Positions 1 to 51,767 of a DNA stretch of 64,000 nt are shown here, piece by piece. A program made the position numbers and the translations under genes. How positions within the stretch are numbered: the first letter of the stretch is position 1; each line of letters begins with the position of its first letter. The notes below the pieces were generated by a model. That model saw nothing but the letters and a program-made list of their open reading frames with translations. It had not been told where the DNA came from and ran no database searches. Source of the DNA: Bacilli bacterium (GTDB lineage Bacteria > Bacillota_I > Bacilli_A > RFN20 > CAG-826); contig JAKSVE010000003.1 of NCBI GenBank assembly GCA_024408295.1, positions 2,043 through 66,042 on the forward strand, read 5' to 3'.

Positions 1-700
1 ACCAACCGGTGAAGGCATAGTGTTCTCTAGTTGGATCGGTTGGCTTGTCCATTGGCTTATCTAAGTCAACTGTGACCCTTTCTGCCTCTTCTGAGCCAAC
101 GTAGTTATAGTTGAATGTGACAGTAGCTTTTGATTGCTTCCATCCAGCATATAAATCAAATGATGATTCGACTTTATTTGAGAAATCGTATTTTTCTGTG
201 CATTCTTTATCGAGATACCAACCGGTGAATGCTTTTGTTCCATCTGGATAAACCGGTGTTGTTGGTTCTCCCAATTTCTCACCATTGTTAACGATGACTG
301 TTTCGTCTTTTGTGACACCATCGTTGTAATGGAGTGTGACAATTCTTTCTGAAATATTCTCTGCCCACTTAGCAAACACTGTCATGTCCTCATAAACTGG
401 TTTGCTTGGATCGAATTCTTCTGTTGAATCTGCTTTATAGCTTAAATACCAACCGACAAAGTTGTAGCCAGGACGAGTTGGAGCCTCCGGAAGAGTGACC
501 TGTTCTCCTGCTTTAACCACTACCTTTGTAACTGATCCATCATAGTTGTTGTTGAATTTGATGACATATTCATCATCAGCATCAACTACAGATGTATTGT
601 TTCCTCCTGAGCTGTTGTTGCCGTTATTACCGCATGCAACAAGGCTTCCAAGAGAAAGAATGGATGAAATGGCTAAGAATACTGACACTTTCTTTTTCAT
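1..700 (-). CDS. Surface lipoprotein with Listeria-Bacteroides (Flg_new, PF09479-type) repeats; 3' end cut by window edge
   Basis: Absent from the ORF track because no stop lies in the window. ATG (rc) at 698-700 is preceded by AGGAG. MKKKVSVFLAISSILSLGSLVAC-G carries a lipobox. At least three ~70-aa repeats each hold a G(Y/F)xFxGWY-type motif (PGYNFVGWY, KAFTGWY, HYAFTGW). The frame stays open to nt 1. Confidence 0.75.
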   Translation of the reverse strand, partial: MKKKVSVFLAISSILSLGSLVACGNNGNNSSGGNNTSVVDADDEYVIKFNNNYDGSVTKVVVKAGEQVTLPEAPTRPGYNFVGWYLSYKADSTEEFDPSKPVYEDMTVFAKWAENISERIVTLHYNDGVTKDETVIVNNGEKLGEPTTPVYPDGTKAFTGWYLDKECTEKYDFSNKVESSFDLYAGWKQSKATVTFNYNYVGSEEAERVTVDLDKPMDKPTDPTREHYAFTGW

Positions 701-765
701 ATTCTCTTCTCCTTTTTCCCTAATTATATAGGGAATTGGCAGCATTTGACTGCCTTATCTTATAA

Positions 766-798
766 ATCTCCGGTACGTCGGATAAACGCACCGGAGAT
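766..798 (-). terminator. Candidate terminator hairpin downstream of the GH3/collagen-like gene
   Basis: Imperfect 12-bp inverted repeat ATCTCCGGTACG (766-777) / CGCACCGGAGAT (787-798), 44 nt past the stop at 842. The trailing U-tract on the minus strand is weak. Confidence 0.35.
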
Positions 799-841
799 CA
801 TTGGTTCGCTAATTACCGATTATGTTCGGTTTTTGCGGGGA

Positions 842-3800: not shown

Positions 3801-5329
3801 TTGTTCTCTGACTGTGAGCAGTGTGAGGTGTTTGCAGCGATGATTCCGTATGCGCCTGCTTCAACTTCATATCCCTTGAAGCCGTTGTTGTTAGCATCCT
3901 TATAGTCGTATGAAGCGATATCCTGGATGTTGACCTTGATCTGGAGCTTCTGTGTTTCGCCTGGAGCTAATTCTTTTGTCTTTGCGTAGCCAACGAGTGT
4001 GACTGCTGACTTTTCGATTCCGCCAGCGTGGTATGGAGCCTTTGAGTAGATCTGGACGACTTCCTTACCTGCGACTGAACCTGTATTTGTGACCTTAACT
4101 GTGACTGTGATGTCCTTGATAGCTGCTTCATAGCCAATTCCTGAATTGATTGCTGAAGCTGGGAGTGAATCACGGCTGAGTGTTGGCTTGCCGATGTTGA
4201 ATGATGTGTATGATAAGCCTGAACCGAATGGGTAGACGACGTTATCTGCATACCAAGCATCTGCTTCTGACTTTGCGTTTGTTGGAGCAACTTTCTCAAG
4301 CTTTCCAGCCTTGTATGAGAGGTGTCCCTGGCAGATTTCTTCGTAAACTGTTTCGCTGTACTTGTAGCCGAGGTAGATGTCTTCGCTGTAGTCAATACCG
4401 TGGTTACCGACGTTGCTTGTGTGATCAGCTGCCTTTGAGCCATCTTCCATGATGTACATGTTTGTGCCAGCTGCGTTCTGTGTGTTAGCGATTGAGTTGT
4501 ACCATGTTGGGTTTGATGTGAAGTCCTTATCCCATGTATCTGCTAATTTACCAGATGGGTTGATTTCACCTGCGAGGAGCATTGGGATAGCTTTGATACC
4601 ATTTGCACCTGGACGGCCGATGAACATGATTGAGTCGATGTCTGCATCCTGCTGGAGGTTGTACATTTCCATTGCGTTGGATGTATTTAATAAGACAACA
4701 ACCTTATTGCACTGTGCCTTAGCATAATCAATCATCTTGATTTCATTTGCTGTGAGCATCTGGTTGTGCTTGAGTTCTTCTCCTGCACCGTTGACCTGGA
4801 GTGATTCGTGGCTCCAGCCATTGTTTTCTGTAGCGTCTGCTGCTTTTTCGCCTGTGCTGACTGGGAGGTCTGAACCTTCGCCGCCGCCTCTCTTAAGGAC
4901 GACAACTGCGACGTCTGTGTGATCAGCTAATGCTTCTGTTGGAATAGCTGTTTCTGTGATGATGTTTGAAGCAACATCGAATCCTGCGTCTGCTAAGACT
5001 GTTTTGACGTTTCCTGTACCGCCCTGGAGTGAGCTTGCTGCTGCACCGAAGACTGTAACCTTAGCTGTTGCTTTGTTGAGTGGGAGGGCATTGTCCTTGT
5101 TCTTTAAGAGAACTGAGCCTTCTGCTGTCAACTTGATGTTGATGTCGATTGCAGCTGCGCTTGCTTCTGCCTGTGTTCCATAAGCTGGTTTTGCATAACC
5201 ATTGTTAGCTGCGTCTGCAACTACTGGAGCCTTGTTGAGTCCACCAATGACTGGAAGTGCAAGAAAAGCACCAACAACGATTGGTGAAATAACCTTCAAC
5301 AGACTTGGTCTATTGCGTTTTAATTTCAT
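842..5329 (-). CDS. Large cell-surface glycoside hydrolase family 3 protein with permuted domain order, Ig-like domain, collagen-like GXY tract and C-terminal membrane anchor
   Basis: 1495-aa ORF with AGGAGG 8 nt upstream of the ATG and an N-terminal signal peptide. GH3 alpha/beta-sandwich motifs (VLLKN..LPL, KRGGGEGSDL, INPSGKLADTW) and an Fn3-like segment (VTVKVTNTGSVAGKEVVQIY) come before the GH3 TIM-barrel motifs (HRTPFSGRNNEYYSSDG, KHMFLNDQETNR, EVYVKPFQ, WGATGFMFHPD). LPEGLSFNPSTGAITG is Ig-like. There are 29 GXY triplets, then a hydrophobic tail plus KKRKSDK. Confidence 0.85.
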   Translation of the reverse strand: MKLKRNRPSLLKVISPIVVGAFLALPVIGGLNKAPVVADAANNGYAKPAYGTQAEASAAAIDINIKLTAEGSVLLKNKDNALPLNKATAKVTVFGAAASSLQGGTGNVKTVLADAGFDVASNIITETAIPTEALADHTDVAVVVLKRGGGEGSDLPVSTGEKAADATENNGWSHESLQVNGAGEELKHNQMLTANEIKMIDYAKAQCNKVVVLLNTSNAMEMYNLQQDADIDSIMFIGRPGANGIKAIPMLLAGEINPSGKLADTWDKDFTSNPTWYNSIANTQNAAGTNMYIMEDGSKAADHTSNVGNHGIDYSEDIYLGYKYSETVYEEICQGHLSYKAGKLEKVAPTNAKSEADAWYADNVVYPFGSGLSYTSFNIGKPTLSRDSLPASAINSGIGYEAAIKDITVTVKVTNTGSVAGKEVVQIYSKAPYHAGGIEKSAVTLVGYAKTKELAPGETQKLQIKVNIQDIASYDYKDANNNGFKGYEVEAGAYGIIAANTSHCSQSENKATLTIQDDAKLALDDFSGVEIENIWSSGRSQSLRTNNNDWNSDGIINDEDKLFTEEQVLLSRSDMVGTKPAGLKTNIVSGGTVLADLLEFSNTLPYHVGDKVKVTTTTTGLTGGTTVEYYEFTAEHAAGAFNISEVKTLEGSFSGGYVVTEKFTELVNYYNNYSLNKWAPKYAYFDAATNYEANDYIGISGGTSVVRATKAMSAPKALTLDGSFTEVGSYVRNGQDIYRIDKALGSIVLQKNAGGSKADKAYEVGDYVTYETSSWGNVTVNNVVITAAVAAGASFSTRTNCRAVTPVDRLVLSGDDQNATKLSASDYLALFTEGTTVQNVGSYLYSDKIMVDDVNGYNGEDNGYDVTKEMMRGWSQQASSAAQSAAKAAAGDKWIVFNDLNGIDFFAEEYTITTGKLRGYTNKSAWQAFMNEWTWEDFYEGCWQGGNDGQAREALGLPVGGIADSPTSWNSTYTWCCNTTIAQTWNVELGYDQGEVVASLGLFKNMTQGTKRDQWLNPAINTHRTPFSGRNNEYYSSDGYHAGYMAQAVVRGIQSCGVGSHLKHMFLNDQETNRNTGDLMVWASEQALREVYVKPFQMAIQEGGAEGAMSAFARIGCVPTPVSYSMVNKLVRNEWGATGFMFHPDMYSPQANCAPEDLMLRTGHNHAPGGKFNTNNGNPLNNVYSGRWDADYDNPLTGTKGGVMIGKVDEATGQDVYYSNNQWYIVRSSAILMMNEYANQAHSMNGLTAPRSGANLVYALNDTYTAYVNGTTNINVGYDEANNGMHEVVYEITKGELPEGLSFNPSTGAITGKTTAVGSYAIEIKATIDRWIVATSKTTIVVGHEAIASTSVNEAGELIVTYTDGTSENLGVVKGQDGAPGADGADGKDGVDGADGAQGEQGPKGDKGDKGDTGATGAPGKDGADGKDGAPGKDGADGKDGAPGKDGVDGKDGADGKDGADAQGCGGSIVATSGIIAGVAALGFAVAAKKRKSDK
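947..1207 (-). repeat. In-frame tandem 9/18-bp repeats encoding a collagen-like (Gly-X-Y)29 tract
   Basis: Repeated units such as gcgccgtccttaccgtct / gcgccatccttaccagga and 3x tcgcccttg. They translate as GKDGADGKDGAPGKDG... and GDKGDKGDT. Confidence 0.9.
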
Positions 5330-5552
5330 CTATATTTCCTCCTGATAAGTGGTAAGGGGAGATGAAACCCCTTTCGATTTGACTATAGGTTAATCTATGA
5401 AAGCGGTTTTGTACATTTAAATGAATGAATTGCTCAAAATCTTGATAGATGAAATTGTTTTAGGCAATCAAATGAGCATATTATTCAATCAAACAATCAA
5501 AAACATGATTTTAGTAGACCAGTATTGATGAATTTAAGATTCGGCATGATTG

Positions 5553-6845
5553 TTATTGGCAATATTTTTCTAAGTAGGCATCGAAAATTATTGTTGTTGA
5601 GGCGTTTTCGGTCCCAGTTTGAAGATAGACTTCTTTTATCTTGTCGTATGTATCCGTATATAGGTTCGCGGGCTTTATATCGATCGTATATGGTGACCAT
5701 GGCTTCATCCTTGGTCCCAACCCATCTTCATGAGTGTACATATAGCAATTTGTCTTATAAGTCCAAGAAAGATGTGACCACCCCTGCTTATCAAAGAAGT
5801 CGAATGAAGTCATCCAATTCTCTTTCTCATCCCAGCAAGACCACTCCCCTATGACAATCGGGACATCATACCCCATGAGGTTAGTAAGGGCCTTGTAGAA
5901 ATCTAAAACCGTCCCGTTTCCCTTTAAAGGCGTGACGTTATAGATGTGATAAGAGTAGGCAACATTCTCCCATCCGTACTTTTTGGCGTTTACCCCGTGG
6001 ATTGGAAAAGTAAAACACTCCATCATGATCATGTGGTTTGGATCTATTTCTCTAACGGCATCATATAGCTTGTCATAGAAATCGAAATTTAGTTTGCCTG
6101 CGTACTTATCAACCCCACTTCTAGGCTCATTTAATAAGTCATAGGCAGCGACTACTTTTCTACCTTTGTATCTAGTTGCCAATTTCTTCCACACATCGAC
6201 GGTGGCATTCTCATTCTTTTCGTTACCATATAAGTCCCATGAATCATCCGCACCGGAATGGTTATCATGATTCTGAGAACCGATTGCTCCGTGATAATCG
6301 ATTATCGCATATAGACCGTACTTCTCACACATATCGAGCGTCCAATCCAATTTATCGAATGCATTATCTCTATATGTGTATCCATCGGTGGTGAAGTTAT
6401 AGCAAGTGATTGGAATACGAACCGCATTCATATTCATATCCTTGATGTTCTTAAAATCCGTTTCCTGGATAAAAGTGTCGATATATAGCTTCTGCAATTC
6501 ATCAACTTGAGCGTCATTGAGATTTGGGTTTAGCTTCATGGCTTCTAAACCACGCTTCGGTGTGTAATAGCCGGTTTCAAAGCCTTCAACGGTTGATGAA
6601 GCCATCCACCACTCCTGATTAAACCAATCACCTAGATTGATGCCTCTAAGCTGAAGTAACTTACCGTCCTCGTCATATATATTGCGCCCGTACGCCTGCA
6701 CATAGCCCGTATCATTATTTATATTAGATGGCCTATCTTTATTAACGGGAATGGCTACCAAAGTAAGATAAAAAGCAATTGGTAAAACCACTACTGCCGC
6801 TAACGCTGATGATACGATTGTTACCACTAATTTCTTGCGCTTCAT
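5553..6845 (-). CDS. Membrane-anchored glycoside hydrolase family 5 (cellulase/mannanase-type, PF00150-like)
   Basis: The track start is GTG at 6902. The preferred ATG at 6843-6845 gives MKRKKLVVTIVSSALAAVVVLPIAFYL as an N-terminal anchor. GH5 signatures: acid/base YDLLNEP, nucleophile IVIGEWSCW, DYHGAIGSQN. Confidence 0.8.
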   Translation of the reverse strand: MKRKKLVVTIVSSALAAVVVLPIAFYLTLVAIPVNKDRPSNINNDTGYVQAYGRNIYDEDGKLLQLRGINLGDWFNQEWWMASSTVEGFETGYYTPKRGLEAMKLNPNLNDAQVDELQKLYIDTFIQETDFKNIKDMNMNAVRIPITCYNFTTDGYTYRDNAFDKLDWTLDMCEKYGLYAIIDYHGAIGSQNHDNHSGADDSWDLYGNEKNENATVDVWKKLATRYKGRKVVAAYDLLNEPRSGVDKYAGKLNFDFYDKLYDAVREIDPNHMIMMECFTFPIHGVNAKKYGWENVAYSYHIYNVTPLKGNGTVLDFYKALTNLMGYDVPIVIGEWSCWDEKENWMTSFDFFDKQGWSHLSWTYKTNCYMYTHEDGLGPRMKPWSPYTIDIKPANLYTDTYDKIKEVYLQTGTENASTTIIFDAYLEKYCQ

Positions 6846-6940
6846 ATTTTCAATTATAGCCATCGAATAAAATTGAAAAAGACACACATCATTTGCCTTC
6901 ACATTTTATCCAATTGGATAATTTTATGCGCATATACATG

Positions 6941-6971
6941 AAAATAGCCCCGATTTGCATTAATCGAGGCT
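6941..6971 (-). terminator. Candidate intrinsic terminator after the LRR gene
   Basis: AGCCCCGATT (6946-6955) / AATCGAGGCT (6962-6971) stem with one mismatch, 11 nt past the stop at 6982. On the minus strand it is followed by AUUUU. Confidence 0.45.
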
Positions 6972-6981
6972 AAATTCGCAG

Positions 6982-9900
6982 TTAATTTGGAAGACCGGCC
7001 TTTGCGTTTGCGGCATTACTGAACAAAATGAAGTCTTGCCGCGTTGCGCCATAGGTCCAGTATTTGATTCCGGTATTCGCATCGCTGACATCATTCTTTC
7101 GTTCAGCATAATAATAAACCGTCGAGTCTTTTGTTGAGTCGGTTGGATAATGCGTAGAAGTGTTATATTGCGTACCTCCCGTTGCATTAGGGACCAAAGG
7201 CGATGCTTGGCACGCCCTTTCTCCGACCAAGATATTACAAGTCTTGAATGATTTCGAGTTATTCAAGGTAAGGTTGGAGACTCTATTCTTGTTATTGCCG
7301 GTCGTGTCTGGCAAGTGCATATATTCAAGCTTATCGCATTCGAGGAATGCGGCTTTCCCGATATAACGTAGGTTTGTGGAATTTCTCAAATCGAACACTC
7401 CCGATTCTTTGGTTGTCACCACTCCGGAAGAACTGTTGTTGTAATATCTGTAGACTGGCTGACTATCGCTCATCTTATTCAAGGCAATGTCGCCATTGAA
7501 CGCATAGTCACCAATGTCATAGACACTTGTCAGCTGTGTGAAATCGAATTTCTGAAGCAACTTATTTCTTTGGAATGCGCCTTGATATGTTGCGTTGTCG
7601 AATGACGCGTTATTGATCATTGGGTGGTTTGTCTTCCACGCTTCCGTGTCTCCAGCGGCAATGTGGCTGCCGTTAATGTACTTCAATCCCGATAAATCAC
7701 CGTTAATCTCGGTTAAAAGTGGATTTGCTGCAACTCCATACGGATAAACTGTCGTGACTGTGTTAGGGATGGAGATTGATGTTGCTGCGGTACCGAAGAT
7801 AGCCTCACAGTTTATGTATTTAGTACCGGTTTCGACAACGAAATTGCCAGTCGTGGACGCTTGCATGCAGTACAGCAAACCATAATGGTTGCCGTTTTGA
7901 TCGTAATAAAGAGCATCGCCTGACCAAGATGTGTTAGGAAGGGTGAGATGCGTCTTATCAAAATATGTCATTCTTGAACTCACTTCATGTCCTGTTGCGG
8001 ATGTCGTAAGCTTTGGCGAGGTTGAGAATGCAGAGATACCAAAAGTTGTCGAAGACGCATCGGTTGTAACGCTTTGGAAGGCATTATTGAAGAAAGCATG
8101 CTTACCAACCTTCGTGCAAGTTGATGGAAGCCTGCAATACGATGCACAACCATTAGGATCTGTCTGAACTACACCAGCCACCTTATAGGTGAAGACCGAT
8201 AAAGCTTTGTTAGGCAAAGAGCTGTTGGTGTTGTATTTAGATAAGAAGGCCCTATCGCCGATTTCTTCTACGGTGTCAGGGATATAAACGGTGTTGACCT
8301 CTTTTTCACCAAAAGCAAAGTCGCCTATTTTCTTGATTGGTGTAGGAGTGTCAAGAAGTGTTAAGTCCAAAGGAGGAGTGACGCTTGTACTCAAACATTG
8401 AGTGATTGTCGTACCGCCATTTTCCTGGACAGTTGCAATAGAGCCGTTGTTGTAATAAGTAACCCCGGTGTCAAGATTACCAAGACCCAAGACATAGTAT
8501 GGAACTGGTCCTGCGCTGTTCGTTGTGTCTGTTGGGTTGGAGTTTCCGGTGGTGGACTCACGTAAATATCCAGACTTCGGGTTCATCCATGTCTTATCCA
8601 ATGGTTCTCTATCCGTATAAACAACCACGCCGTTGGTGCCCAAAAAATTGGTATTCCATCCGAAATTCGCAGTTGTGTTGAAATTTAGATTCAAGAAAAT
8701 TTCTTTTAGGCCGGTGCCGGCAAAAATATTGGAACTGAACGTTTTTAAACCATGGCTGCTGACGAATTTGACTAAATTGGAGCATCCGTTGAACGCGCTG
8801 TCTCCAAAGGATATCTGACTCTTGTTGTCGTTTGTTTTGCCGTGCGTGTTATGCTGGCATTCCAACATCCTCACGCTTCTGATGCTCTTCGCTCCGTTGA
8901 ACGAGTTTGAACCAACAGCAACGCTGCTACCTCCAGCTTGGCCTGCTTGGTAATTGCTGAGTGAGCAAGGCAATTCCAAATCGAATGTTTTCTTGGAATT
9001 TTTGCCCATGTTCCTGAATGTGCCATTACCGATATTTCCTAAGCAACAATCAGCGGTCGGGTCAGTCCTAAAGGAAAGATAACTGCACATCGTCAAATCG
9101 ATAAAACAATCACTCCAGAAAAATTCTAAAGAGTTCGGGAGAATAAGCTCTTCGATTTTGTTGTTTCCAATACTTGTTCCTGCGTCGTTATTGCCGAATT
9201 GTCGCCATCCGATCTCTTTTAATTCGGTGCATCTTTCATATCTTAACTGCTCAATCTCAGTGCATCCTTGATATGCGCTATACCAAATTCTAACCAATGT
9301 CTGGTTATGGATGATGCCTTTCAGTTCTGTGTGATATGCGAAAGCCTTAGGTCCAATGACCGCAAGAGGATAATCGGCGTTTGTCGCATCGTCGTGAACG
9401 TAATCAGGCAACGTTAAAATCTGATTATGCATATATCCTTCAACATCATCTGTATCGTAACGGTTATACGATAGCAATGTCGCATAAGAGTATCTTGATT
9501 TCCACGTCTTCTTTTTACTTTCAGAAACAATGGAACCGTTTAGCGTAATAGAATAGATAAGGCCCGGATATTGATTAGCACCCGAGATGCTAGGGACTTC
9601 GAACTGGGTTTTGATTTTATAATCATCCCTATTTGAGGTCGAATATAGGTAAGTGTAGTATCTTCCGTATGCACTAGGCACTTCGCTTTCCTTGCACTGG
9701 AAATACACGGTGAGGTTGTCACATTGCGTAAAAGCGAAATCCTCAATGCAAGCCACATTTTTAGGCACATGAAGCGCAGAGAAGTTGCCGCATTTCGAGA
9801 AGGCATATGACCTGATTGTTATCGGGTTGTTTGGAAGAAATAGGTAAGGCAAAGAATCGCAATTCTCAAAAGCACACCTGCCTATTTCCAAAAGGGTTTT

Positions 9901-10479
9901 TGGTGCAGAGATGTCTTTAAGTTTGAAACATGCCGCAAATGCGTTGTCGGCAATGACGGTAATATGCTCGTTGACCGAATCCTCAGGAAGGCCTTGATGT
10001 GCGTATTTGACTGATTCCAAATTTCTACAATCCATGAATGTGGCGCATTGAATCTCGGTGATGTTCTCAGGCAGGACAATCTCGGTGAGATTAATACAGC
10101 ACATGAAAGCTTCTGGTTTAATCTCATCAATTGAATTCGGGATATCGACCTGCTCGAAATCGCAATTTGAGAATCCACCATAGGAAATGCATTTCACATC
10201 ATACGTCGTGCCATCGAATGTCAGTGTAGACGGGATCGTGAGATGAGTTGGTGTTGAACTCTTATCATCGTCTGCCCAGGCAATCGAAACAGCGGAAGAA
10301 TAATTCTTAAGAGTTTTACATAGATATTCGTAGTTGTTGCCGTCTCTTGCAACGAACGAAATCTCGTCATTTTCGGTGTATTTTTCCGCAAAAGCCACAA
10401 ATAAAGGTACATTCAAAAGAGACACGGCCACAACGGCAATGAATAGCATCAACATTTTTGATATAAAAGATTTCTTCAT
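6982..10479 (-). CDS. Secreted BspA-type leucine-rich-repeat (LRR_5, PF13306-like) surface protein
   Basis: 1165-aa ORF with signal peptide MKKSFISKMLMLFIAVVAVSLLNVPLFVAFA. Many ~23-aa repeats of the IPxSVxxIGxxAFxxCxxLxxI type, e.g. IPNSIDEIKPEAFMCCINLTEIVLPENITEIQCATFMDCRNLESV. The ATG lies 2 nt after the upstream stop. Confidence 0.8.
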   Translation of the reverse strand: MKKSFISKMLMLFIAVVAVSLLNVPLFVAFAEKYTENDEISFVARDGNNYEYLCKTLKNYSSAVSIAWADDDKSSTPTHLTIPSTLTFDGTTYDVKCISYGGFSNCDFEQVDIPNSIDEIKPEAFMCCINLTEIVLPENITEIQCATFMDCRNLESVKYAHQGLPEDSVNEHITVIADNAFAACFKLKDISAPKTLLEIGRCAFENCDSLPYLFLPNNPITIRSYAFSKCGNFSALHVPKNVACIEDFAFTQCDNLTVYFQCKESEVPSAYGRYYTYLYSTSNRDDYKIKTQFEVPSISGANQYPGLIYSITLNGSIVSESKKKTWKSRYSYATLLSYNRYDTDDVEGYMHNQILTLPDYVHDDATNADYPLAVIGPKAFAYHTELKGIIHNQTLVRIWYSAYQGCTEIEQLRYERCTELKEIGWRQFGNNDAGTSIGNNKIEELILPNSLEFFWSDCFIDLTMCSYLSFRTDPTADCCLGNIGNGTFRNMGKNSKKTFDLELPCSLSNYQAGQAGGSSVAVGSNSFNGAKSIRSVRMLECQHNTHGKTNDNKSQISFGDSAFNGCSNLVKFVSSHGLKTFSSNIFAGTGLKEIFLNLNFNTTANFGWNTNFLGTNGVVVYTDREPLDKTWMNPKSGYLRESTTGNSNPTDTTNSAGPVPYYVLGLGNLDTGVTYYNNGSIATVQENGGTTITQCLSTSVTPPLDLTLLDTPTPIKKIGDFAFGEKEVNTVYIPDTVEEIGDRAFLSKYNTNSSLPNKALSVFTYKVAGVVQTDPNGCASYCRLPSTCTKVGKHAFFNNAFQSVTTDASSTTFGISAFSTSPKLTTSATGHEVSSRMTYFDKTHLTLPNTSWSGDALYYDQNGNHYGLLYCMQASTTGNFVVETGTKYINCEAIFGTAATSISIPNTVTTVYPYGVAANPLLTEINGDLSGLKYINGSHIAAGDTEAWKTNHPMINNASFDNATYQGAFQRNKLLQKFDFTQLTSVYDIGDYAFNGDIALNKMSDSQPVYRYYNNSSSGVVTTKESGVFDLRNSTNLRYIGKAAFLECDKLEYMHLPDTTGNNKNRVSNLTLNNSKSFKTCNILVGERACQASPLVPNATGGTQYNTSTHYPTDSTKDSTVYYYAERKNDVSDANTGIKYWTYGATRQDFILFSNAANAKAGLPN

Positions 10480-10481
10480 TC

Positions 10482-13415
10482 CTATGCCCCTCCTCTATAA
10501 GTGTTTCCTAATTGCATGTATACCGCATTATTTTTATACGGCGCGTTATCTATCACGTAATACGGTGTCTTCTTTTTGTCCATAATTAGCAAGTAATCAA
10601 CGAATCTTGCACTCGTTTCATCGAATATCATCTTGAATGTTCCAGTAGATGAATCGGCAATGAACGAACCATTTGCAATATTGAATTCAATCGCCATTGA
10701 AACCTGTGAGAGATTATATTGATCTCTGGTGTTGTCTATTGGGCTATTCAACAAGAAGTCAACATTGGTGATGGAACTATCCATCATTGGTGAATCAGAT
10801 GATCCAATCGTGCCATCATCCTGTCCTTGCGCTGCCAAGAAATAGATGTTTGCGGTTCCGGATGCGGCACCAATGCAATACTCACCTTGTGGAAGTTTAA
10901 AGATGTGAGCGAAAAGCTTGCCAGATCTTCTTAAGCTTCCGGCATCGCTATCATATCTATCCACCGCCTTTGAACCAGTAGTTCCAGATGCGGCATCGTA
11001 TTTAAAGTATCTACACATATCATTGGCCTCGTTTTCGTTATTGTAATAAAGCTTCTGATAGGCCGATGGACCTGAATGCATTGTGTATTTCTTAACGAAA
11101 TCGGACGTGCTAGTGCCAGAATTGAAGCTATAGACAGAGATATCATCATTGTTGCCAACAACGGAAACGTTCGCTCCATTAGGGTTTTCAATCTTGAGAA
11201 TGATGGTATTTGAAGGATAGTAGGCTGAACTAGTATCGGTTTGGAATGCAAATTTTTGGCTTGGTCTACCAATTGGCATATAAGAAGATAAGCCATTCAA
11301 TATTTCGTTTTCGCTGCTTCTGAACATGAAACCGAATCTTTGTGTTCCCGGAGTGATGGATGCGCCGTATTTATCAATCAATCTGTTGGAAAGATAATTC
11401 GCAAGGAACGGGCTGCTGGTGTTGTAGAAGTAATTGTTTCCGTGAGTGTTATCAATATCAGCCAAATCCATTTCGTAGATATAGTCAAAATCCCTCTGAT
11501 AAAGAGGCGAGAAGGTGTTTACAGAACTCCAGCTTGGCTCGGTTCCGATGTTATCCAATTGGTTAGCAATGGCGTTCCATGTGTATCCCGTTCCAAATTT
11601 CGTGTGGTCGATTTCCGCAGTTGAATAATACACTTTGGTCTTAGCTTCTGCTTCATTCAGGATTCTGCTTGCACCAATATCGCGCGCAAATTCTGTGCCG
11701 AGGTTATCTTCTGTCAATGTTGTAGCGTTGTAATTTGTCGCGATTTTAAAGACGCCGAGACCTCTGTCTTTGCCTTCTTCATCAGCGATTACCTTGTTGT
11801 TTAGGAAATCGACAGAGTTAATGTATTTGAAATTGTCGTTGGTAACGCGAACATTTCCGCTAGAGCTCAGTTCTGACTGAGATTTGGTGATCAAGTGTCT
11901 TGATGATGATGCATCATAGCGGAGATATTCCCTATAAAGGTTGTCGACATCTTTCAATTTGTCGTCATAAGAAGTGTACGAGTATTTGGTTCCTCCAATC
12001 ATGGTGTAGGAACCCCATGCATTTGCACCGACAGCATAATTGTCTCTGATAACCCCATAGACTTTAGAGAAGTTCATAACACCTGTTTCACCGTGTAACT
12101 GCAATGCGATGTCCGGAGAGATGTCATTGAAAACACTGGCGCCGATTTCTCCAACCAAACCAGTTTGAGACTCACTCTTGATTGAAGTTAATCCGCCATT
12201 GTTGAGATTAAGCGTGCCGTTATATAGGAAACAGTTATTTAAGCTTCCATCAACGTGTCCTGCAATATATCCGATGTTGTTTCCATGGTGATAGTTCGTG
12301 TGATCACCCGCAACGAAATCGCAATACATGGTCATACCGTAATTGCCCTCGTCGTATGTAGATGCATTTGACCTGATCTTGCATAAATATGTCTGAACAA
12401 CACGCGAATACGCATAACCATCGATGATGATTGATGCGATTAATGAGATTCTAGTATCGACATAGACGTCATTGGTGTTGAACTCCTCGCTCTCTTCTAA
12501 TTTGGAGAAGTTGATACGTGCTCTTTCTTCCCCTTCTGCTTCAACCTTTTCAACTATGCCGGTAGAGAATCTCCAATAGTAGTTGAACGGCGTGCCGGTT
12601 GGAAGATAATTTGTGAAATAGAAATCGGAATAGTCTTTATCGTTGATACTGATCAGATGCTCGCTTGAATTGATTCGAGAATACGATGTCGCACCTAAGC
12701 CAGATGGATTCTTTAAATCGATTTCGCTTCCATTATAATGTAACTTAACTCCTCCATCCCTTGCAAAACGCTCAGTTTCTGCGGCAAAAATATCATCGAT
12801 ATCGCTGCCAAACAGCTGATCGACATGGTTTTTGCTTGAATCATATCCATAGGAATCGATAGTAAGATCTTTCAAGACGAGATTTTCAACAGATGCATTA
12901 GCGGCGACATATCCAAATACGCCAATATCTTCTGGATAACCAGAAATCTTTAGGTTAACGATCGGAACGTTGTGTCCATTGAATGAACCATAGAATGGTG
13001 TGCCTTCTTCTCCAATTGGAGGCATTGCGATAGACTGCATGGAAGACATATCCAAATATGAGGTGTATTCCATCTCTCCGTCTTCTCCAGGAAGCATGCA
13101 CTGATAACCAAGCTCTTCGTCAAATATGTGGCCAACAGTGAAATATGTCTTCTTTTCGAAAATACCAAGGTTCTGAAGACGGGTTAGATTATAGAAATGG
13201 ATTGGGGACACTATTTCGTATGGGTTCTCCTCTGTTCCGTTTCCCTGATAGAAATACGTTCTTAAGCCAACGCCACCACCGACAGTTTGATCGTCCTGAA
13301 CCGTAGGCAATGAGACTCTGAACCAAGCGTACGTTCCAATGCAAAAAGCGGTCGACGACAACATCGCCAACAAACCGGAGATATACAGTTTAAAGTTCTT
13401 ATTCCTAGCCGCCAT
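10482..13415 (-). CDS. 977-aa secreted/anchored protein of unknown function with TasA-type signal motif and probable beta-helix passenger
   Basis: The track start at 13475 uses an alternative codon. The preferred ATG at 13413-13415 overlaps the upstream stop by 11 nt. N-terminus is MAARNKNFKLYISGLLAMLSSTAFCIGTYAWF. GNGTEENPYEI and GLUG-like segments (GYIAGHVDGSLNNC, GLVGEIG) are present. No catalytic motif recognised. Confidence 0.7.
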   Translation of the reverse strand: MAARNKNFKLYISGLLAMLSSTAFCIGTYAWFRVSLPTVQDDQTVGGGVGLRTYFYQGNGTEENPYEIVSPIHFYNLTRLQNLGIFEKKTYFTVGHIFDEELGYQCMLPGEDGEMEYTSYLDMSSMQSIAMPPIGEEGTPFYGSFNGHNVPIVNLKISGYPEDIGVFGYVAANASVENLVLKDLTIDSYGYDSSKNHVDQLFGSDIDDIFAAETERFARDGGVKLHYNGSEIDLKNPSGLGATSYSRINSSEHLISINDKDYSDFYFTNYLPTGTPFNYYWRFSTGIVEKVEAEGEERARINFSKLEESEEFNTNDVYVDTRISLIASIIIDGYAYSRVVQTYLCKIRSNASTYDEGNYGMTMYCDFVAGDHTNYHHGNNIGYIAGHVDGSLNNCFLYNGTLNLNNGGLTSIKSESQTGLVGEIGASVFNDISPDIALQLHGETGVMNFSKVYGVIRDNYAVGANAWGSYTMIGGTKYSYTSYDDKLKDVDNLYREYLRYDASSSRHLITKSQSELSSSGNVRVTNDNFKYINSVDFLNNKVIADEEGKDRGLGVFKIATNYNATTLTEDNLGTEFARDIGASRILNEAEAKTKVYYSTAEIDHTKFGTGYTWNAIANQLDNIGTEPSWSSVNTFSPLYQRDFDYIYEMDLADIDNTHGNNYFYNTSSPFLANYLSNRLIDKYGASITPGTQRFGFMFRSSENEILNGLSSYMPIGRPSQKFAFQTDTSSAYYPSNTIILKIENPNGANVSVVGNNDDISVYSFNSGTSTSDFVKKYTMHSGPSAYQKLYYNNENEANDMCRYFKYDAASGTTGSKAVDRYDSDAGSLRRSGKLFAHIFKLPQGEYCIGAASGTANIYFLAAQGQDDGTIGSSDSPMMDSSITNVDFLLNSPIDNTRDQYNLSQVSMAIEFNIANGSFIADSSTGTFKMIFDETSARFVDYLLIMDKKKTPYYVIDNAPYKNNAVYMQLGNTYRGGA

Positions 13416-14277
13416 AACCAAACCTAAACATGTAATCGTCCACAACCACGAGGTTCTCCATACGGACGGCATCAATATATGATGTGAGTTTCTCTATGTT
13501 GTAATTAACGTTAATATACACGGTGACACAGTCGTCATCGTCTAAAACGCAATCACCATCATAAAGGGAGATTCTCTCTGTTGTTTCCTCGCCAAAGAAA
13601 TTCGAATGCTCGCTATCTTCAAGAGATGCAAGGTAACTGAGTTTGTGATAAATCTCCTCCCCTTCAGTCAGAACGGAAGATTGAGCAAGATACGATGGAT
13701 AATAATTCTTAAAACCATCAGTGATTAAGGATTCAGAAGACAAATCACTATCTAAATAGACGTCGAATTCCAAACATTCTGTTGCCTTGATTTGCCCCGA
13801 ACCCAGCGTGATTTCACGCAACAAAGACTCGACAACCAATCTCGTGTCAGGCACCAAGAATCTAATCTTTGCCTCATAGATGATGTTCGTATTCATCGAA
13901 AGCAATGTGCTGTGGTTGATTAATTGATCGAGCGGGTCATATAAATTCATGCCGGCGTCACGTTCTTCGAAAGCACCGTCGACTAACAAACCAAACTTGC
14001 ACTGTTCTTCCTCGTAAAGATATTTGGTGACGACGCCGCTTTCTGGATCAAGATAGTCGACGTACGATTCTGTTTCGCTGATCTTGACGGTTGGATAGAC
14101 AAACTTATATAAATTCAGTTCTTCTAACTGATAACGTTCTGGGTTTACTGCAGCTATATTGGACATCGAAACTTCTACATGTTGAATAGAAGTAAACCAA
14201 GCAAAAGTACCGGTAACTGCTGCACCGGCGGATAGGATGATAGCAAATATGGAGCATGCAATTTGTTTACGAATCAT
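13405..14277 (-). CDS. 290-aa acidic secreted protein of unknown function with TasA/camelysin-type signal motif
   Basis: Preferred ATG at 14275-14277 (track start 14301). N-terminus is MIRKQIACSIFAIILSAGAAVTGTFAWFTS. The mature part is D/E-rich with no recognisable domain. First gene of the three-gene operon. Confidence 0.65.
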   Translation of the reverse strand: MIRKQIACSIFAIILSAGAAVTGTFAWFTSIQHVEVSMSNIAAVNPERYQLEELNLYKFVYPTVKISETESYVDYLDPESGVVTKYLYEEEQCKFGLLVDGAFEERDAGMNLYDPLDQLINHSTLLSMNTNIIYEAKIRFLVPDTRLVVESLLREITLGSGQIKATECLEFDVYLDSDLSSESLITDGFKNYYPSYLAQSSVLTEGEEIYHKLSYLASLEDSEHSNFFGEETTERISLYDGDCVLDDDDCVTVYINVNYNIEKLTSYIDAVRMENLVVVDDYMFRFGYGG

Positions 14278-14361
14278 ACGTATCCATTCTGCAGCTGGCA
14301 ACCCTTTGAGGCCCTATAGCTTTGCGTCACACGATTTCTCGTGCTTTGCCTTTACGGGTTT

Positions 14362-14389
14362 ATTATACACACGTGTGTACGTATGTAAA
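14362..14389 (-). promoter_or_regulatory. Predicted sigma-A promoter of the surface operon with embedded 14-bp palindrome
   Basis: On the minus strand: TTTACA (14384-14389), 16-nt spacer, TATAAT (14362-14367). The perfect palindrome TACACACGTGTGTA (14366-14379) occupies the spacer and the -10 edge. Confidence 0.4.
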
Positions 14390-14471
14390 TGTTTAAAGCA
14401 CAAATGTCTGGCTATTTGAACAATAGAACGGTTTCTGTTTTTCTAGGCATTATTTATCAATATAAGTATAG

Positions 14472-14500
14472 AAAAAGCCTCGGTTTGTTGAAATCGAGGC
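14472..14500 (-). terminator. Intrinsic terminator of lysS
   Basis: GCCTCG (14477-14482) / CGAGGC (14495-14500) hairpin. On the minus strand it is followed by UUUUU (plus-strand AAAAA 14472-14476). Confidence 0.7.
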
Positions 14501-14517
14501 AGTTTTGTCGTGTTTTA

Positions 14518-16005
14518 TTACTTGTCGTCTCTTAATGTTGGGAAGAGGAGAACTTCTCTGATTGTATCCTGTTCGGTCATAAGCATGACGAATCTATCGA
14601 TACCAACACCGATGCCTCCTGCAGGTGGCATACCATAAAGGAGAGCGTCTAAGAATGTCATATCCATATCGTTAGCTTCATCGTCGCCTCTTTCTCTAGC
14701 GGCTAACTGAGCCTGGAATCTCTCAAGCTGATCGAATGGGTTGTTGAGTTCGCTATAAGCGTTGCCGAATTCGCATCCAGCAATGAAGAGTTCGAATCTA
14801 TCAACGAATCTTGGATCTTCGGTCTTCTTGGTTAATGGAGAGACTTCGATTGGATATGTGTGGATGAAGGTTGGCTGAACGAGTGTTGGTTCAACGAATT
14901 CATCGAAGAATGCCTGCATGATATAACCTGCTGAGTTCCATGACTTCTGGAGTGGAACGTTGTGTTCCTTAGCAAGCTTGACTGCTTCTTCGTAAGAGAT
15001 GTCCTGTGTGAAGTCAACACCACATGCGTTCTTGATAGCCTCTGCCATTGAGATTGATGCGAATGGCTTTGAGACATCGATATCATATCCATGCCAATGG
15101 AAGACTTCTTTGCCCATGACGTTCTTTGCGACACTGTGGAATAATCCTTCAACCCACTCCATCATGCTTCTTAAGTCACCATATGCCTGGTATAACTCGA
15201 TTGTGGTGAATTCTGGGTTGTGTCTGTTATCCATACCTTCATTTCTGAAGATACGGCCGATTTCATAAACTCTATCGATACCGCCGACCATGCACTTCTT
15301 GAGGTTTAACTCAGTTGCGATACGGAGATAGAAATCCTTATCGAGTGTATTGTGGTGTGTGATGAATGGACGAGCCGCTGCTCCACCGAGGATTGGTGAG
15401 AGGATTGATGTTTCGACTTCAACGAAGCCTAAGTCATCACAGTATTTCTGGATTGCTCTGACAATTTTTGGTCTAGCTAGAGCGATTCTTCTTGATTCGT
15501 CATTAACCATCAAGTCGAGGTATCTCTTTCTTGATCTGTCTTCAAGATCTGTGAATCCGTGGAACTTTTCTGGGAGTGGCTTCAAGCACTTTGTGATATG
15601 TGTGAACTTTGCGCATCTGATTGTGAGTTCGCCAGTTCTTGACTTCATCATTGTTCCTTCGATACCGACGATATCGCCTGTATCAGCAAGCTTGAAGATT
15701 GCGTAGTTGTCATCTCCAACAACGTTCTTTCCGATCCAGACCTGGATTGTTCCATATTCGTCTTTGACGGTGAAGAATGCTGCCTTGCCCATGCTTCTGA
15801 TGATCATGATACGGCCAGCGATGTTACATGGGATTGGGTTCTCATTGAACTGCTCCTCTGTATATTCTCCGTAATTTGCGCGTAAATCGATGATTCTATC
15901 CTTCCACTCATAGCGTGAGCCGAATGGGTCGATTCCTAATTCTTCGTACTTAGCAAGTTTTGCTCTTCTTGCTTCTTCTTGATCGTTGAGTCTTAATTCT
16001 TCCAT
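14518..16005 (-). CDS. lysS: Lysine--tRNA ligase, class II
   Basis: 495-aa ORF with OB-fold N-domain and class II core motifs (FRNEGMDNRHNPEFTTIELY, GGIGVGIDRFVMLMT). GGAGG lies upstream. dusB-lysS synteny matches Bacilli. Confidence 0.97.
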   Translation of the reverse strand: MEELRLNDQEEARRAKLAKYEELGIDPFGSRYEWKDRIIDLRANYGEYTEEQFNENPIPCNIAGRIMIIRSMGKAAFFTVKDEYGTIQVWIGKNVVGDDNYAIFKLADTGDIVGIEGTMMKSRTGELTIRCAKFTHITKCLKPLPEKFHGFTDLEDRSRKRYLDLMVNDESRRIALARPKIVRAIQKYCDDLGFVEVETSILSPILGGAAARPFITHHNTLDKDFYLRIATELNLKKCMVGGIDRVYEIGRIFRNEGMDNRHNPEFTTIELYQAYGDLRSMMEWVEGLFHSVAKNVMGKEVFHWHGYDIDVSKPFASISMAEAIKNACGVDFTQDISYEEAVKLAKEHNVPLQKSWNSAGYIMQAFFDEFVEPTLVQPTFIHTYPIEVSPLTKKTEDPRFVDRFELFIAGCEFGNAYSELNNPFDQLERFQAQLAARERGDDEANDMDMTFLDALLYGMPPAGGIGVGIDRFVMLMTEQDTIREVLLFPTLRDDK

Positions 16006-16053
16006 ACTTGTTCCTCCAAGTAGCGTGCATAGTTTAATACAAACTAGACTTAA

Positions 16054-16076
16054 TAAAAAGGCTGAATAATCAGCCC
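16054..16076 (-). terminator. Intrinsic terminator after the ABC exporter pair
   Basis: GGCTGA (16060-16065) / TCAGCC (16070-16075) hairpin followed on the minus strand by UUUUUAUU, directly after the stop at 16079. Confidence 0.65.
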
Positions 16077-16078
16077 TT

Positions 16079-18013
16079 TTAGTCTTTCATGGCGTTGCCG
16101 GTATACAACTGGTAGTATTTTCCGCCCTGCGCTATCAATTCGTCGTGCGAGCCTCTTTCAATGATTCTACCTTGGTCTAAGACCATGATAACATCTGAGT
16201 TCTTGACGGTTGAGAGTCTATGAGCGATGACAAATACCGTTCTTCCCTTCATGATGGCATCCATTCCCTTCTGGACCATCTCTTCTGTACGAGAGTCGAT
16301 AGAGCTTGTTGCTTCATCAAGAATCATGACAGGTGGATTTGCAATAGCCGCTCTTGCGATTGCGATAAGCTGCCTTTGACCTTGTGAGAGGTTGGTTCCA
16401 GCCTTCTCCAACATCGTGTCATATCCATTTGGGAGATTGGAGATAAATCTATGGGCGTTTGCGAGTTTTGCAGCCTCGATAATCTCTTCGTCTGTTGCGT
16501 CCAATTTACCGAATCTGATGTTATCCTTTACTGTTCCAGTAAACAATTCGGTATCCTGAAGAACCATGCCAAGGGATCTTCTCAAGTCATATTTCTTGAT
16601 CTTGTTGATGTTGATGTCATCGTATCTGACCTTACCATCCGCAATATCGTAGAAACGATTGATGAGGTTTGTGATTGTTGTTTTACCTGCGCCGGTTGGA
16701 CCAACGAATGCGACTTTCTGTCCAGGTTGTGCGTAAAGTGAGATGTTATGCAAGACAATCTTCTCTGGAACATATCCGAAGTCTACATCATAGAAGTCAA
16801 TCTTGCCTTTAAGCCAAGTGTATGAGACTTCTCCGTTTTCATGAGGATGTTTCCATGCCCATTTGCCAGTTCTTTCTTCAACTTCAATCGGGTTGCCGTT
16901 TTCGTCTTCCTTAGCGTTTACTAAAGTAACATAACCTTCATCAACTTCTGATGGGGTATCTGTTAATTCGAATATACGAGCAGCTCCCGCTAAGGCCATA
17001 ACGATTGCGTTTGTCTGCTGAGCAAGGTTGCCGATTGGGTTTGTGAATGACTTCGAGAGCATCAAGAATGTAACGATGACTCCAACGTCAAACATATCCG
17101 CCATCGGACCCAATGATGACTTGAATGTAAGTAAGACTGCAGCGATTAATCCAAGAATAATGTACTGCAAGTTACCAGCCTGATTAACAACTGGCATTAA
17201 GGTATTTGCAAACTTATTTGCCTTGGTTGATTCATAGCATAAAGCGTCGTTGAGCTTATCGAATCCTTCAACTGACTTCTGTTCGTGGTTGAAGACCTTG
17301 ACGACTCTCTGTCCATTAATCATTTCTTCGACATATCCATTGGTTTTTCCTAAAGCAATCTGCTGCTGAACGAAATGCTTTCCGGAACGTTTTGTAACAC
17401 CTTTGGTGAAGAAGAACATCGGGATTGTTAACGCAATAACAAGGAGAGCGAATATCCAGTTTGTGATGAACATGACGATGGTGACTGTGAGGATTGAGAA
17501 TGCACAGTTAACCACCATTGGCCATGAACGGGACATAGCTTCTCTAAGGGTGTCGACGTCGTTTGTGTAAATAGACATCAAGTCACCACGAGTTCTTGTG
17601 TCGAAATATGAAAGAGGTAATGTCTGCATATGCTCGAAAAGCTCGTCTCTTATTCTCTTCTGGGTTCCTTGAGCGCATTTGCACATCAAGAAATTGTAGA
17701 AGTAAATGCAGATGATACCGAAAACATAGACAGAGCCCATGATGATAGCCCACATGCCCATCTTCTTCATGATCTCATCACCCATTAAAGGGTTGTCTTT
17801 AAGTGGTGTGAGGATTTCATTGACGAAGACCATACCAACGAAGTAGTTGGACATGACCTGGGCGATACATGAACCGATAACGCAGAAGATAGAAGCGAAG
17901 AATTCAAATGGGTAATATTTGATTTCATATGCAAATATCCTCTTGATCGCGTGATTTCTAGCCTCTTTGCTGACTTTTCCAACGCGAGCATTAGATAACT
18001 TACTTGGTGGCAT
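16079..18013 (-). CDS. ABC transporter permease/ATP-binding protein (type I exporter half, heterodimer partner)
   Basis: N-terminal 6-TM exporter domain plus NBD (Walker A GPTGAGKTT, signature LSQGQRQ, Walker B MILDEATS). The preferred ATG at 18011-18013 lies 8 nt after GGAGG; the track start at 18022 is GTG. Confidence 0.9.
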   Translation of the reverse strand: MPPSKLSNARVGKVSKEARNHAIKRIFAYEIKYYPFEFFASIFCVIGSCIAQVMSNYFVGMVFVNEILTPLKDNPLMGDEIMKKMGMWAIIMGSVYVFGIICIYFYNFLMCKCAQGTQKRIRDELFEHMQTLPLSYFDTRTRGDLMSIYTNDVDTLREAMSRSWPMVVNCAFSILTVTIVMFITNWIFALLVIALTIPMFFFTKGVTKRSGKHFVQQQIALGKTNGYVEEMINGQRVVKVFNHEQKSVEGFDKLNDALCYESTKANKFANTLMPVVNQAGNLQYIILGLIAAVLLTFKSSLGPMADMFDVGVIVTFLMLSKSFTNPIGNLAQQTNAIVMALAGAARIFELTDTPSEVDEGYVTLVNAKEDENGNPIEVEERTGKWAWKHPHENGEVSYTWLKGKIDFYDVDFGYVPEKIVLHNISLYAQPGQKVAFVGPTGAGKTTITNLINRFYDIADGKVRYDDININKIKKYDLRRSLGMVLQDTELFTGTVKDNIRFGKLDATDEEIIEAAKLANAHRFISNLPNGYDTMLEKAGTNLSQGQRQLIAIARAAIANPPVMILDEATSSIDSRTEEMVQKGMDAIMKGRTVFVIAHRLSTVKNSDVIMVLDQGRIIERGSHDELIAQGGKYYQLYTGNAMKD

Positions 18014-41383: not shown

Positions 41384-41413
41384 ATTGTGATAATATTTCA
41401 GCGGGGAAACATT

Positions 41414-51642: not shown

Positions 51643-51663
51643 AAATTAATGTATAATAATTAA

Positions 51664-51745
51664 GCCATCGCGAGGAGTACTCTTCGAACCAGGTCAGGTG
51701 GGGAACCAAGCAGCCTTAAGATCAGAACCCCTGTGCGGTGGTTTT
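51664..51745 (+). ncRNA. ffs: Small (4.5S-type) signal recognition particle RNA
   Basis: ACCAGGUCAGGUGGGGAACCAAGCAGCC matches the conserved SRP domain IV (E. coli ACCAGGUCAGGUCCGGAAGGAAGCAGCC) with a GGAA tetraloop. The ends pair (GCCAUCGC / GCGGUGGU). Followed by a U-tract. Confidence 0.8.
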
Positions 51746-51767
51746 CTATTTGGTTTATAATTTAGTC

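Follow-up and report, generated by a model that had tools for sequence, protein, structure and literature searches.

A probable c-di-GMP-controlled surface adhesion operon with TasA/CalY-type signals in uncultured Bacilli

What is built by three tightly packed genes of an uncultured Bacilli bacterium whose first two products have the same unusual N-terminal motif? The genes occupy positions 6982-14389, all on the minus strand, of a 64-kb stretch of contig JAKSVE010000003.1 (hereafter the window). They encode an exported beta-sandwich protein of 290 aa (gene 1, 13405..14277), a beta-rich multidomain protein of 977 aa (gene 2, 10482..13415) and a BspA-type leucine-rich-repeat (LRR) surface protein of 1165 aa (gene 3, 6982..10479). 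An initial annotation had proposed a fibre or adhesin assembly module, in which the first two products would carry signal sequences like those of TasA and camelysin (CalY). Every detail of its description of the locus that we checked was correct. It had not included a riboswitch for c-di-GMP (cyclic diguanosine monophosphate) of class I in the operon leader, and this element is the strongest functional evidence we have. We consider that the trio is probably a c-di-GMP-controlled cell-surface adhesion operon with signals of the TasA/CalY type.

The riboswitch aptamer lies at 14287..14360 on the minus strand. It matched the Rfam model RF01051 over its full length (1-87) with 60.3 bits, compared to a gathering score of 35 (E 2.7e-9), and the variant model RF03167 gave 53.1 bits on the same leader, under its threshold of 59. 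The match starts 2 nt after the end of the -10 hexamer, and 9 nt separate its 3' end from the gene 1 ATG, so that the riboswitch would be expected to gate the expression of all three genes. Rfam scans of six related loci (L004, L005, L007, L009, L011 and L014; L numbers denote individual loci) placed the same element directly 5' of the gene 1 homologue in each, and a covariance model built from the related copies identified it before the first module gene in 28 related loci. In 36 copies from related loci, 91% of the cells were paired, compared to 27-42% in slid controls. Both sides of the pair had changed in 86 cells against 30 expected, a number that none of 500 shuffles matched. Genes with GGDEF, EAL or HD domains flank the module in L004, L005, L007, L013, L022, L029 and L034, which is circumstantial support for control by c-di-GMP. 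In L022, the GGDEF gene that adjoins the module on its upstream side begins with a further class I copy (5991-6065), which suggests feedback control of c-di-GMP synthesis.

The rest of the operon anatomy agrees with a single unit. The gapless packing was re-derived from the open reading frames (ORFs): the gene 1 stop (13405-13407) and the gene 2 ATG (13415) overlap by 11 nt, and 2 nt separate the gene 2 stop (10482) from the gene 3 ATG (10479). As had been proposed, one promoter and one terminator enclose the trio. The promoter-like site TTTACA-16 nt-TATAAT (14362..14389, minus strand) agreed with the consensus at 11 of 12 positions and was the top sigma-70 match in 6700-14600; the terminator-like hairpin (6945..6972, minus strand) has an 11-bp stem with 5 GC pairs and a T run, and lies 10 nt past the gene 3 stop. 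The longest ORFs of genes 1 and 2 open at TTG codons (13405-14301, 298 aa, and 10482-13475, 997 aa, respectively), and the ATG codons at 14277 and 13415 give the products of 290 and 977 aa. We chose the ATG at 14277, with which the product starts MIRKQ, because the TTG at 14301 would sit within the aptamer.

In which direction c-di-GMP acts can be approached through the relatives. Fourteen loci (L005, L010, L016, L017, L022, L023, L026, L031, L032, L034, L035, L036, L037 and L041) use the aptamer 3' arm (GCCAGYUGCC or AACCUCA) a second time, as the 5' arm of a hairpin with a U run behind it, and aptamer and terminator are therefore mutually exclusive. Such competition implies an ON switch in which the ligand would lead to read-through, and it resembles Bc2 of Bacillus thuringiensis, a class I riboswitch that turns on a collagen adhesin (PMC6366702). 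The window and L008, L009, L004, L007, L011, L013, L014, L027, L029 and L033 have no terminator and only 8-20 nt between aptamer and start codon, so that control there must be translational; the window riboswitch most likely acts at this level. Its leader contains a hairpin sequestering the start codon, which is not kept in L008 and L009. In the leaders of L010 (1279-1340), L016 (8968-9043), L018 (9029-9115), L020 (251-322) and L023 (8808-8870), a second copy of the aptamer 3' arm (AGAUAGCCAGUUGCC) occurs downstream of the competing terminator and agrees better with the consensus than the first copy does. It may have remained from a tandem riboswitch, or it may belong to an unusual expression platform with two arms.

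Conservation of the trio in related genomes, a check that the initial annotation had suggested, was evident. Context look-ups and a scan of the species genomes in GTDB gave 37 related loci, and an ORF and hidden Markov model (HMM) map of them showed the order small protein, ~1000-aa protein and LRR protein in nearly every locus with intact flanks. The trio is thus one unit, kept in about 30 related loci, and the identity of gene 2 to that of the window ranges from 27 to 75%. The genomes come from uncultured Bacilli in rumen, omasum, and horse or chicken faeces, and are labelled uncultured Erysipelotrichaceae RUG, Candidatus Alectryobacillus or Bacilli incertae sedis. In L028, the pair of the ~1000-aa gene and the LRR gene occurs twice in tandem (1217-9609 and 9977-17068), the first pair with a gene 1 homologue and a riboswitch, the second pair with neither of them. 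In L004, an extra ORF of 997 aa (408-3401) lies ~6 kb upstream of the module, and the ORF map gave no match between it and the gene 2 profile. The orphan cow-rumen-1 RNA motif (RF02946, 71-85 bits) was found in three tandem copies right after the LRR gene in L004 (17541-18239) and again right before the riboswitch of the module in L011 (7874-8544); this adjacency may be non-accidental.

The second line of evidence concerns the signals of genes 1 and 2. Both hexapeptides lie where they had been placed on the minus strand, GTFAWF at 14194..14211 in gene 1 and GTYAWF at 13320..13337 in gene 2, with predicted cuts after residue 26 (TFA|WF) and residue 30 (TYA|WF), respectively. The two proteins are otherwise dissimilar, and the G-T-[FY]-A-W-F junction is their common part. 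In the six-frame translation of the window, [AS]W[FY] at the end of an N-terminal hydrophobic stretch was found only in these two genes. In 59 gene 1 relatives, down to 25% identity, A26-W27-F28 make up three of only six invariant columns. In a set of 130 relatives, A at -1 and W at +1 occurred in all and F at +2 in 129, and the -3 position (T/V/A/S) and the -4 position (G/A/S) each fitted in 127. Gene 2 homologues have an invariant W-F, with A/G/S at -1 and T/S/A at -3 in 119 of 120. Because of this invariance across homologues, A-W-F is a non-chance motif. Read from the alignments, the pattern is that of the -3/-1 rule of type I signal peptidases followed by an invariant mature N-terminus.

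The spacing is informative as well. The uncharged run between the last charged or polar residue and the predicted cut is exactly 21 residues in both window genes. A run of 21 was also found in 27 of 34 distinct TasA/CalY-type N-termini encoded beside SipW genes and in 77 of 130 gene 1 relatives, and the run was 20-22 residues long in 89 of 119 gene 2 relatives. The two window proteins have the full signal anatomy of the SipW-cognate class, namely a basic n-region, a fixed hydrophobic spacer, small residues at -3 and -1, and an aromatic residue and Phe at +1 and +2. In an hhalign comparison, GTFAWF stood in register with GTWAAF of TasA, over the signal region only and with a probability of 1.5%, which is not significant; the sequence of the TasA query was matched by L054 and L055. 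A type IV pilin or pseudopilin signal was rejected, since G|F-T-L-x-E is missing and the hydrophobic stretch comes before the conserved motif, not after it. A sortase pilus was rejected as well, for no LPXTG or C-terminal anchor was found in any of the three products.

The link between such signals and SipW-type peptidases came from the relatives. A search with phmmer, using a B. subtilis SipW sequence, gave a single match among all related loci (L043, 15603-16370), which was then confirmed with NCBIfam: NF046067 scored 50.8 bits, and TIGR02228 45.2 against 51.85. The Ser of SMEP, the His of THR and GDN are conserved in this peptidase, and its catalytic box is divergent (TDSMEP). Its gene lies 2.3 kb from a gene of the AWF type and adjoins an EAL gene. 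A metagenome scan with the L043 peptidase gave 80 SipW-type loci, 32 of which had a TasA-class N-terminus in a neighbouring ORF. A-W-F variants were found in three of them, L047 (SSTFA|WFTT twice, and YS|WF), L062 (GGTYA|WFNS) and L091 (ATGA|WFSD), and these grade into the canonical A|YFSD form. Overall, AWF-type proteins are encoded beside SipW-type peptidase genes in L043, L047, L062 and L091. From the signal anatomy together with this gene neighbourhood, the AWF signal therefore belongs in the SipW-cognate class.

Relatives have a second cluster, absent from the window, at a distance of a few kb downstream of the trio, and L047 is homologous to it. This second cluster has its own class I riboswitch and encodes several paralogues of 270-390 aa with the same signal (GTVAWF, GTVAWY or GSVAWF), a membrane protein of 126-127 aa and a protein starting MYELD..KRKRK; together these resemble the major and minor subunits of a fibre. 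We found it in L005 (17261-23075), L007 (20203-22952), L013 (17386-18805), L014 (19597-22940), L023 (17245-22964), L025 (16384-17463) and L047 (1401-9797). The homology of L047 to the cluster in L005, L007, L014 and L023 was detected for the 126-aa membrane protein (E 9e-8) and the 386-aa protein (E 8e-11), and the L047 riboswitch (72 bits) is at the syntenic position. There the order is riboswitch, 386-aa gene, AAA_5-like ATPase, 467-aa protein and SipW. The block of AAA ATPase, 467-aa protein, SipW and EAL recurs in L043, L045 and L046. Its members are an AAA_5-like ATPase of ~510 aa, a coiled-coil protein of 467-709 aa, a SipW-type S26 peptidase of 255-262 aa and a membrane EAL phosphodiesterase (L043 14069-20142, minus strand; L045 42-4749; L046 4-3857; L047 6376-9797). 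The EAL gene is followed by a 241-aa ORF in L043 and L045, and the sequences of L046 and L047 stop at the peptidase gene or shortly beyond it. The block of L047 comes directly after the riboswitch-controlled AWF cluster.

The proteins themselves belong to families that are poorly connected to others. An exhaustive profile search of 1.84 billion representatives yielded gene 1 relatives in 146 clusters at 50% identity. It was needed to reveal the family, as a word-indexed search, even with a profile, returned only 13 proteins. Neither gene 1 nor gene 2 has a Pfam or NCBIfam domain in its family or a sequence relative in the PDB by profile search. The AlphaFold model of gene 1 is a beta-sandwich with one long helix (predicted local distance difference test, pLDDT, 74; predicted template modelling score, pTM, 0.75). 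Residues 1-42 are of low confidence; residues 3-25 are modelled as a helix, and residues 27-48, past the predicted cut, are unstructured and of low confidence in the monomer and have an alternating hydrophobic pattern, which agrees with donor-strand exchange without being evidence for it. For gene 2, at least 205 homologues of ~1000 aa were found, none of them named, and their sources are all metagenome-assembled genomes of Bacilli bacterium. The gene 2 model is beta-rich and multidomain (pLDDT 74, pTM 0.49), with a helix at residues 4-34, and it had no global match in the PDB or BFVD. The only domain matches in Foldseek were to folds like carbohydrate-binding modules (CBMs) or jelly rolls (8x8h_A, probability 0.96; CBM29), with low TM-scores of 0.3-0.4 on the target and no sequence support. 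The suggestion of a beta-helix with GLUG-like turns in gene 2 was rejected. Glug (PF07581) did not match the window protein and was marginal in 4 of 26 relatives (E>=0.081), and Foldseek gave no beta-helix match.

Gene 3 could be placed more firmly. The view that it is a BspA-type LRR protein was well supported by Pfam LRR_5 (PF13306; E 3.8e-61, 205 bits against a threshold of 27.7), which covers 8 stretches, and it is found downstream of gene 2 in nearly all related loci. Its signal is of the ordinary kind (VAFA|EK). It also matched the HupY/LrrG model (NF047961) weakly, with 48 bits against an equivalog cut-off of 1250. In distant relatives, the LRR protein has a lipobox-like N-terminus (..LSAC|G or ..VTAC|G), as in L025 (12859-16134), L026 (13374-17798), L030 (3761-6768), L032 (9257-13807) and L040 (12854-16036), which is compatible with surface tethering. 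In the clade of the window, this N-terminus is a plain signal or anchor. It seems that the mode of tethering of the LRR adhesin changed within the family.

Several results weigh against the reading of the trio as a c-di-GMP-controlled adhesion operon with TasA/CalY-type signals. With the SipW-cognate model TIGR04088 in NCBIfam, gene 1 scored 18.3 bits (E 0.0019), just below the cut-off of 19, and gene 2 had no match; only 3 of 59 gene 1 relatives reached E<=0.01, and none of 26 gene 2 relatives reached E<=0.1. The assignment of the junction to this class in the initial annotation stood as regards the anatomy, the 21-residue spacer and the SipW-linked AWF variants, but not as regards this model. 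The proposed camelysin/TasA family also failed to appear: Peptidase_M73 (PF12389) had no match to gene 1 in Pfam at E<=1, and one of its 59 relatives had an E of 0.027. As to the fold, the gene 1 model is a beta-sandwich and its top PDB match in Foldseek was AbpA (7ueg), the archaeal bundling pilus with a TasA-like donor-strand fibre; but that similarity is not significant (E 0.026, probability 0.23, TM 0.20-0.28), and TasA itself was outside the top 50 PDB matches. We rejected homology between the body of gene 1 and TasA or camelysin, for which there was no sequence signal and a fold signal short of significance. As to control, the window has a 9-nt spacer, no terminator and a weak Shine-Dalgarno sequence, and folding did not tell ON from OFF; class I c-di-GMP riboswitches tested in Clostridioides difficile were all OFF switches (PMC6366702).

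The remaining adverse points concern processing, and they are also those that would suit a membrane-anchored adhesin complex without TasA-like cleavage, in which the N-termini of genes 1 and 2 would be uncleaved anchors or ordinary Sec signals, A-W-F would serve as an interface or partner-recognition motif, and the control by c-di-GMP would stay. We regard this as unlikely, although it is the most serious of the alternatives. A 21-residue uncharged run is long enough to span the membrane, and the AlphaFold helices noted above for both proteins would agree with an anchor. The LRR protein itself appears to be N-terminally anchored in the lipobox-like relatives. The statement in the initial annotation that the window holds no SipW-type peptidase was borne out, in that no S26 or SipW-like ORF was found in it, and in 36 related loci neither SipW nor S26 genes occur up to 10 kb on either side of the module. 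The hydrophobic N-terminus is kept in distant gene 2 homologues, which have AYY, TYM, AYV or CAF instead of AWF, so that the segment in gene 2 may be a plain anchor. Conservation of the motif, a check that the initial annotation had suggested, thus extends to gene 1 relatives and to close gene 2 homologues but not to distant ones; the special signal is strict in gene 1 and only in the nearer clade of gene 2. Residues of this kind at -3/-1 would be acceptable to the general signal peptidase too. On the other side, an invariant small residue at -1 and a small one at -3 (127-130 of 130) are needed by a cleavage site and not by an anchor. The 21-residue geometry is that of TasA/CalY-type signals beside SipW, and SipW removes the signal peptide of TasA (PMC9674648). 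The AWF proteins next to SipW genes in the four loci named above also argue for cleavage.

Two other explanations were weighed. The trio might be a module for attachment to plant fibre or polysaccharide that works with the adjacent cellulase of glycoside hydrolase (GH) family 5 and the GH3/collagen-repeat enzyme, with gene 2 as the source of carbohydrate-binding domains and with dietary fibre, not host cells or other microbes, as the target. Both genes follow directly downstream of the trio in the same orientation, jelly rolls of the CBM type match the gene 2 model, and the relatives are all from rumen or hindgut samples. Although this is compatible with a c-di-GMP-controlled adhesion operon, we think it improbable, because the terminator at 6972-6945 parts the trio from GH5 and the GH neighbours are not conserved: a GH31 gene lies ~7 kb upstream in L005/L006, and the neighbours in L004 and L007 had no GH family matches. 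The CBM-like matches, as stated, have low TM-scores and no sequence support. It is very improbable that the trio is a receptor-binding or tail-fibre cassette of phage origin, or that unrelated genes with a common motif came together by chance. Large beta-rich and LRR proteins do occur in phage tails, and a few local BFVD matches had a probability of 1.00 over 130-170 columns; however, there was no global BFVD match (TM<=0.1), the neighbours are housekeeping genes with no phage genes among them, and module, riboswitch and motif are kept across about 30 genomes, which effectively refutes this explanation.

If the trio is a c-di-GMP-controlled adhesion operon, it might work as follows. Transcription would start at the promoter at 14389-14362, and c-di-GMP would turn the operon ON through the leader. 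The three products would be exported, gene 3 as an LRR adhesin with its ordinary signal. The signal of genes 1 and 2, with basic residues, 21 uncharged residues and [TS]-x-A|W-F, would be an A-W-F variant of the TasA/CalY class, and a signal peptidase of the ER/archaeal type encoded outside the window would cut after the Ala. The mature proteins would then begin with W-F and continue into a strand-like segment. Like its counterparts in TasA and TapA, this segment might dock the two proteins on each other or on further subunits by strand complementation, and the resulting scaffold may display gene 2's CBM-like domains together with the LRR adhesin. A more ambitious version is speculative, and we hold it doubtful. 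It is that of an undescribed c-di-GMP-switched fibre in uncultured small-genome gut Bacilli, in which the products of genes 1 and 2, cut by an ER-type SipW peptidase so that both start with the same W-F, would form a donor-strand heteromeric stalk carrying the LRR adhesin and work together with the second AWF/AWY cluster and the block of AAA ATPase, coiled-coil protein, SipW and EAL.

Compared with described systems, the trio is best placed with two kinds already described, adhesins under riboswitch control and matrix or adhesin operons of the SipW class, but with protein families that are uncharacterised. As in tapA-sipW-tasA of B. subtilis, two dissimilar exported proteins have a common N-terminal signal and junction in a setting of biofilm or adhesion, and TapA and TasA have only the N-terminal donor strand in common (PMC9674648). 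The signals also agree in their basic residues, 21 uncharged residues, small -3/-1 positions and then an aromatic residue and Phe (GGGTWA|AF and GTFA|WF). In contrast to that operon, sipW is absent from the trio operon and from the window, the bodies of genes 1 and 2 show no detectable sequence similarity or significant fold similarity to TasA or TapA, the partners are a 977-aa protein and an LRR adhesin, and the control would be by a c-di-GMP riboswitch instead of SinR. The sipW-bsaA-bsaB-bsaC operon of Clostridium perfringens likewise combines small TasA-like subunits with a large accessory surface protein; its family has highly divergent sequences and several paralogues per locus, suggesting heteropolymers, and some members lock subunits by isopeptide bonds through an N-E-K triad (PMC11580942). 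Its large protein, however, is of the vWA type, its sipW is in the operon, and no riboswitch has been reported for it.

On the regulatory side, c-di-GMP riboswitches are typically located upstream of motility or adherence genes, and a riboswitch of the GEMM type leads surface-adhesion genes in B. thuringiensis (Bc2-cap) and C. difficile (CD2831, CD3246 and pilA1) as it does here (PMC6366702). Unlike those adhesins and pili, the trio proteins are new families without LPXTG or pilin features. The switch also differs from the known ones, as the window version has no terminator and is probably translational, and in C. difficile the ON switches are of class II and those of class I are OFF. Gene 3 resembles HupY/LrrG and the BspA-type LRR proteins in its LRR_5 stretches and in the weak HupY/LrrG match. 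It differs from HupY/LrrG in scoring far below the equivalog cut-off, in having no cell-wall anchor and in being always encoded after genes 1 and 2. In the full-text literature that we searched, there was no link of a c-di-GMP riboswitch with sipW and no mention of TIGR04088, and c-di-GMP, riboswitch, BspA and leucine-rich repeat occurred together only in an unrelated study of L. plantarum.

Genes 1 and 2 have relatives only in uncultured Bacilli of the rumen and hindgut. If our reading is true, these two sizeable families without a Pfam domain or a named homologue acquire a c-di-GMP input and a likely role in adhesion or matrix formation, and the TasA/SipW signal class gains an A-W-F variant and a measurable 21-residue spacer before the cleavage site. 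SipW-type processing and donor-strand assembly may then serve large heteromeric adhesins, beyond homopolymeric biofilm fibres. The conserved riboswitch would also make the hypothesis testable in vitro for organisms that cannot be grown.

The trio is situated between lysS on one side and the GH5 gene on the other. The surrounding genes are housekeeping genes (lysS, ABC exporters, dus, ftsH, mfd and pth), and the trio is near dnaA and oriC. Downstream on the same strand are the GH5 gene (5553-6902) and the GH3 gene (842-5329). The latter encodes a surface enzyme of 1495 aa, with GH3 domains in permuted order (the C-terminal domain first), an Fn3-like domain and a He_PIG immunoglobulin (Ig) domain. 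A collagen-like G-x-y repeat is present at about residues 1374-1440, and the C-terminus is a hydrophobic anchor followed by KKRKSDK, without LPXTG. The region of the replication origin is also in the window, at about 35.8-50.2 kb, with a change of sign in the AT skew near 42 kb. There yidC, jag and mnmE lie on the minus strand at 35.8-40.5 kb and are followed on the plus strand by dnaA (41387-42778), dnaN and gyrB/gyrA (45.4-50.2 kb); the calls of dnaA and gyrBA were based on ORF positions, a DnaA-like peptide and the flip of the AT skew and not on a family search. The RNA of the signal recognition particle (RF00169, 56.6 bits) was found at 51657-51754 of the window.

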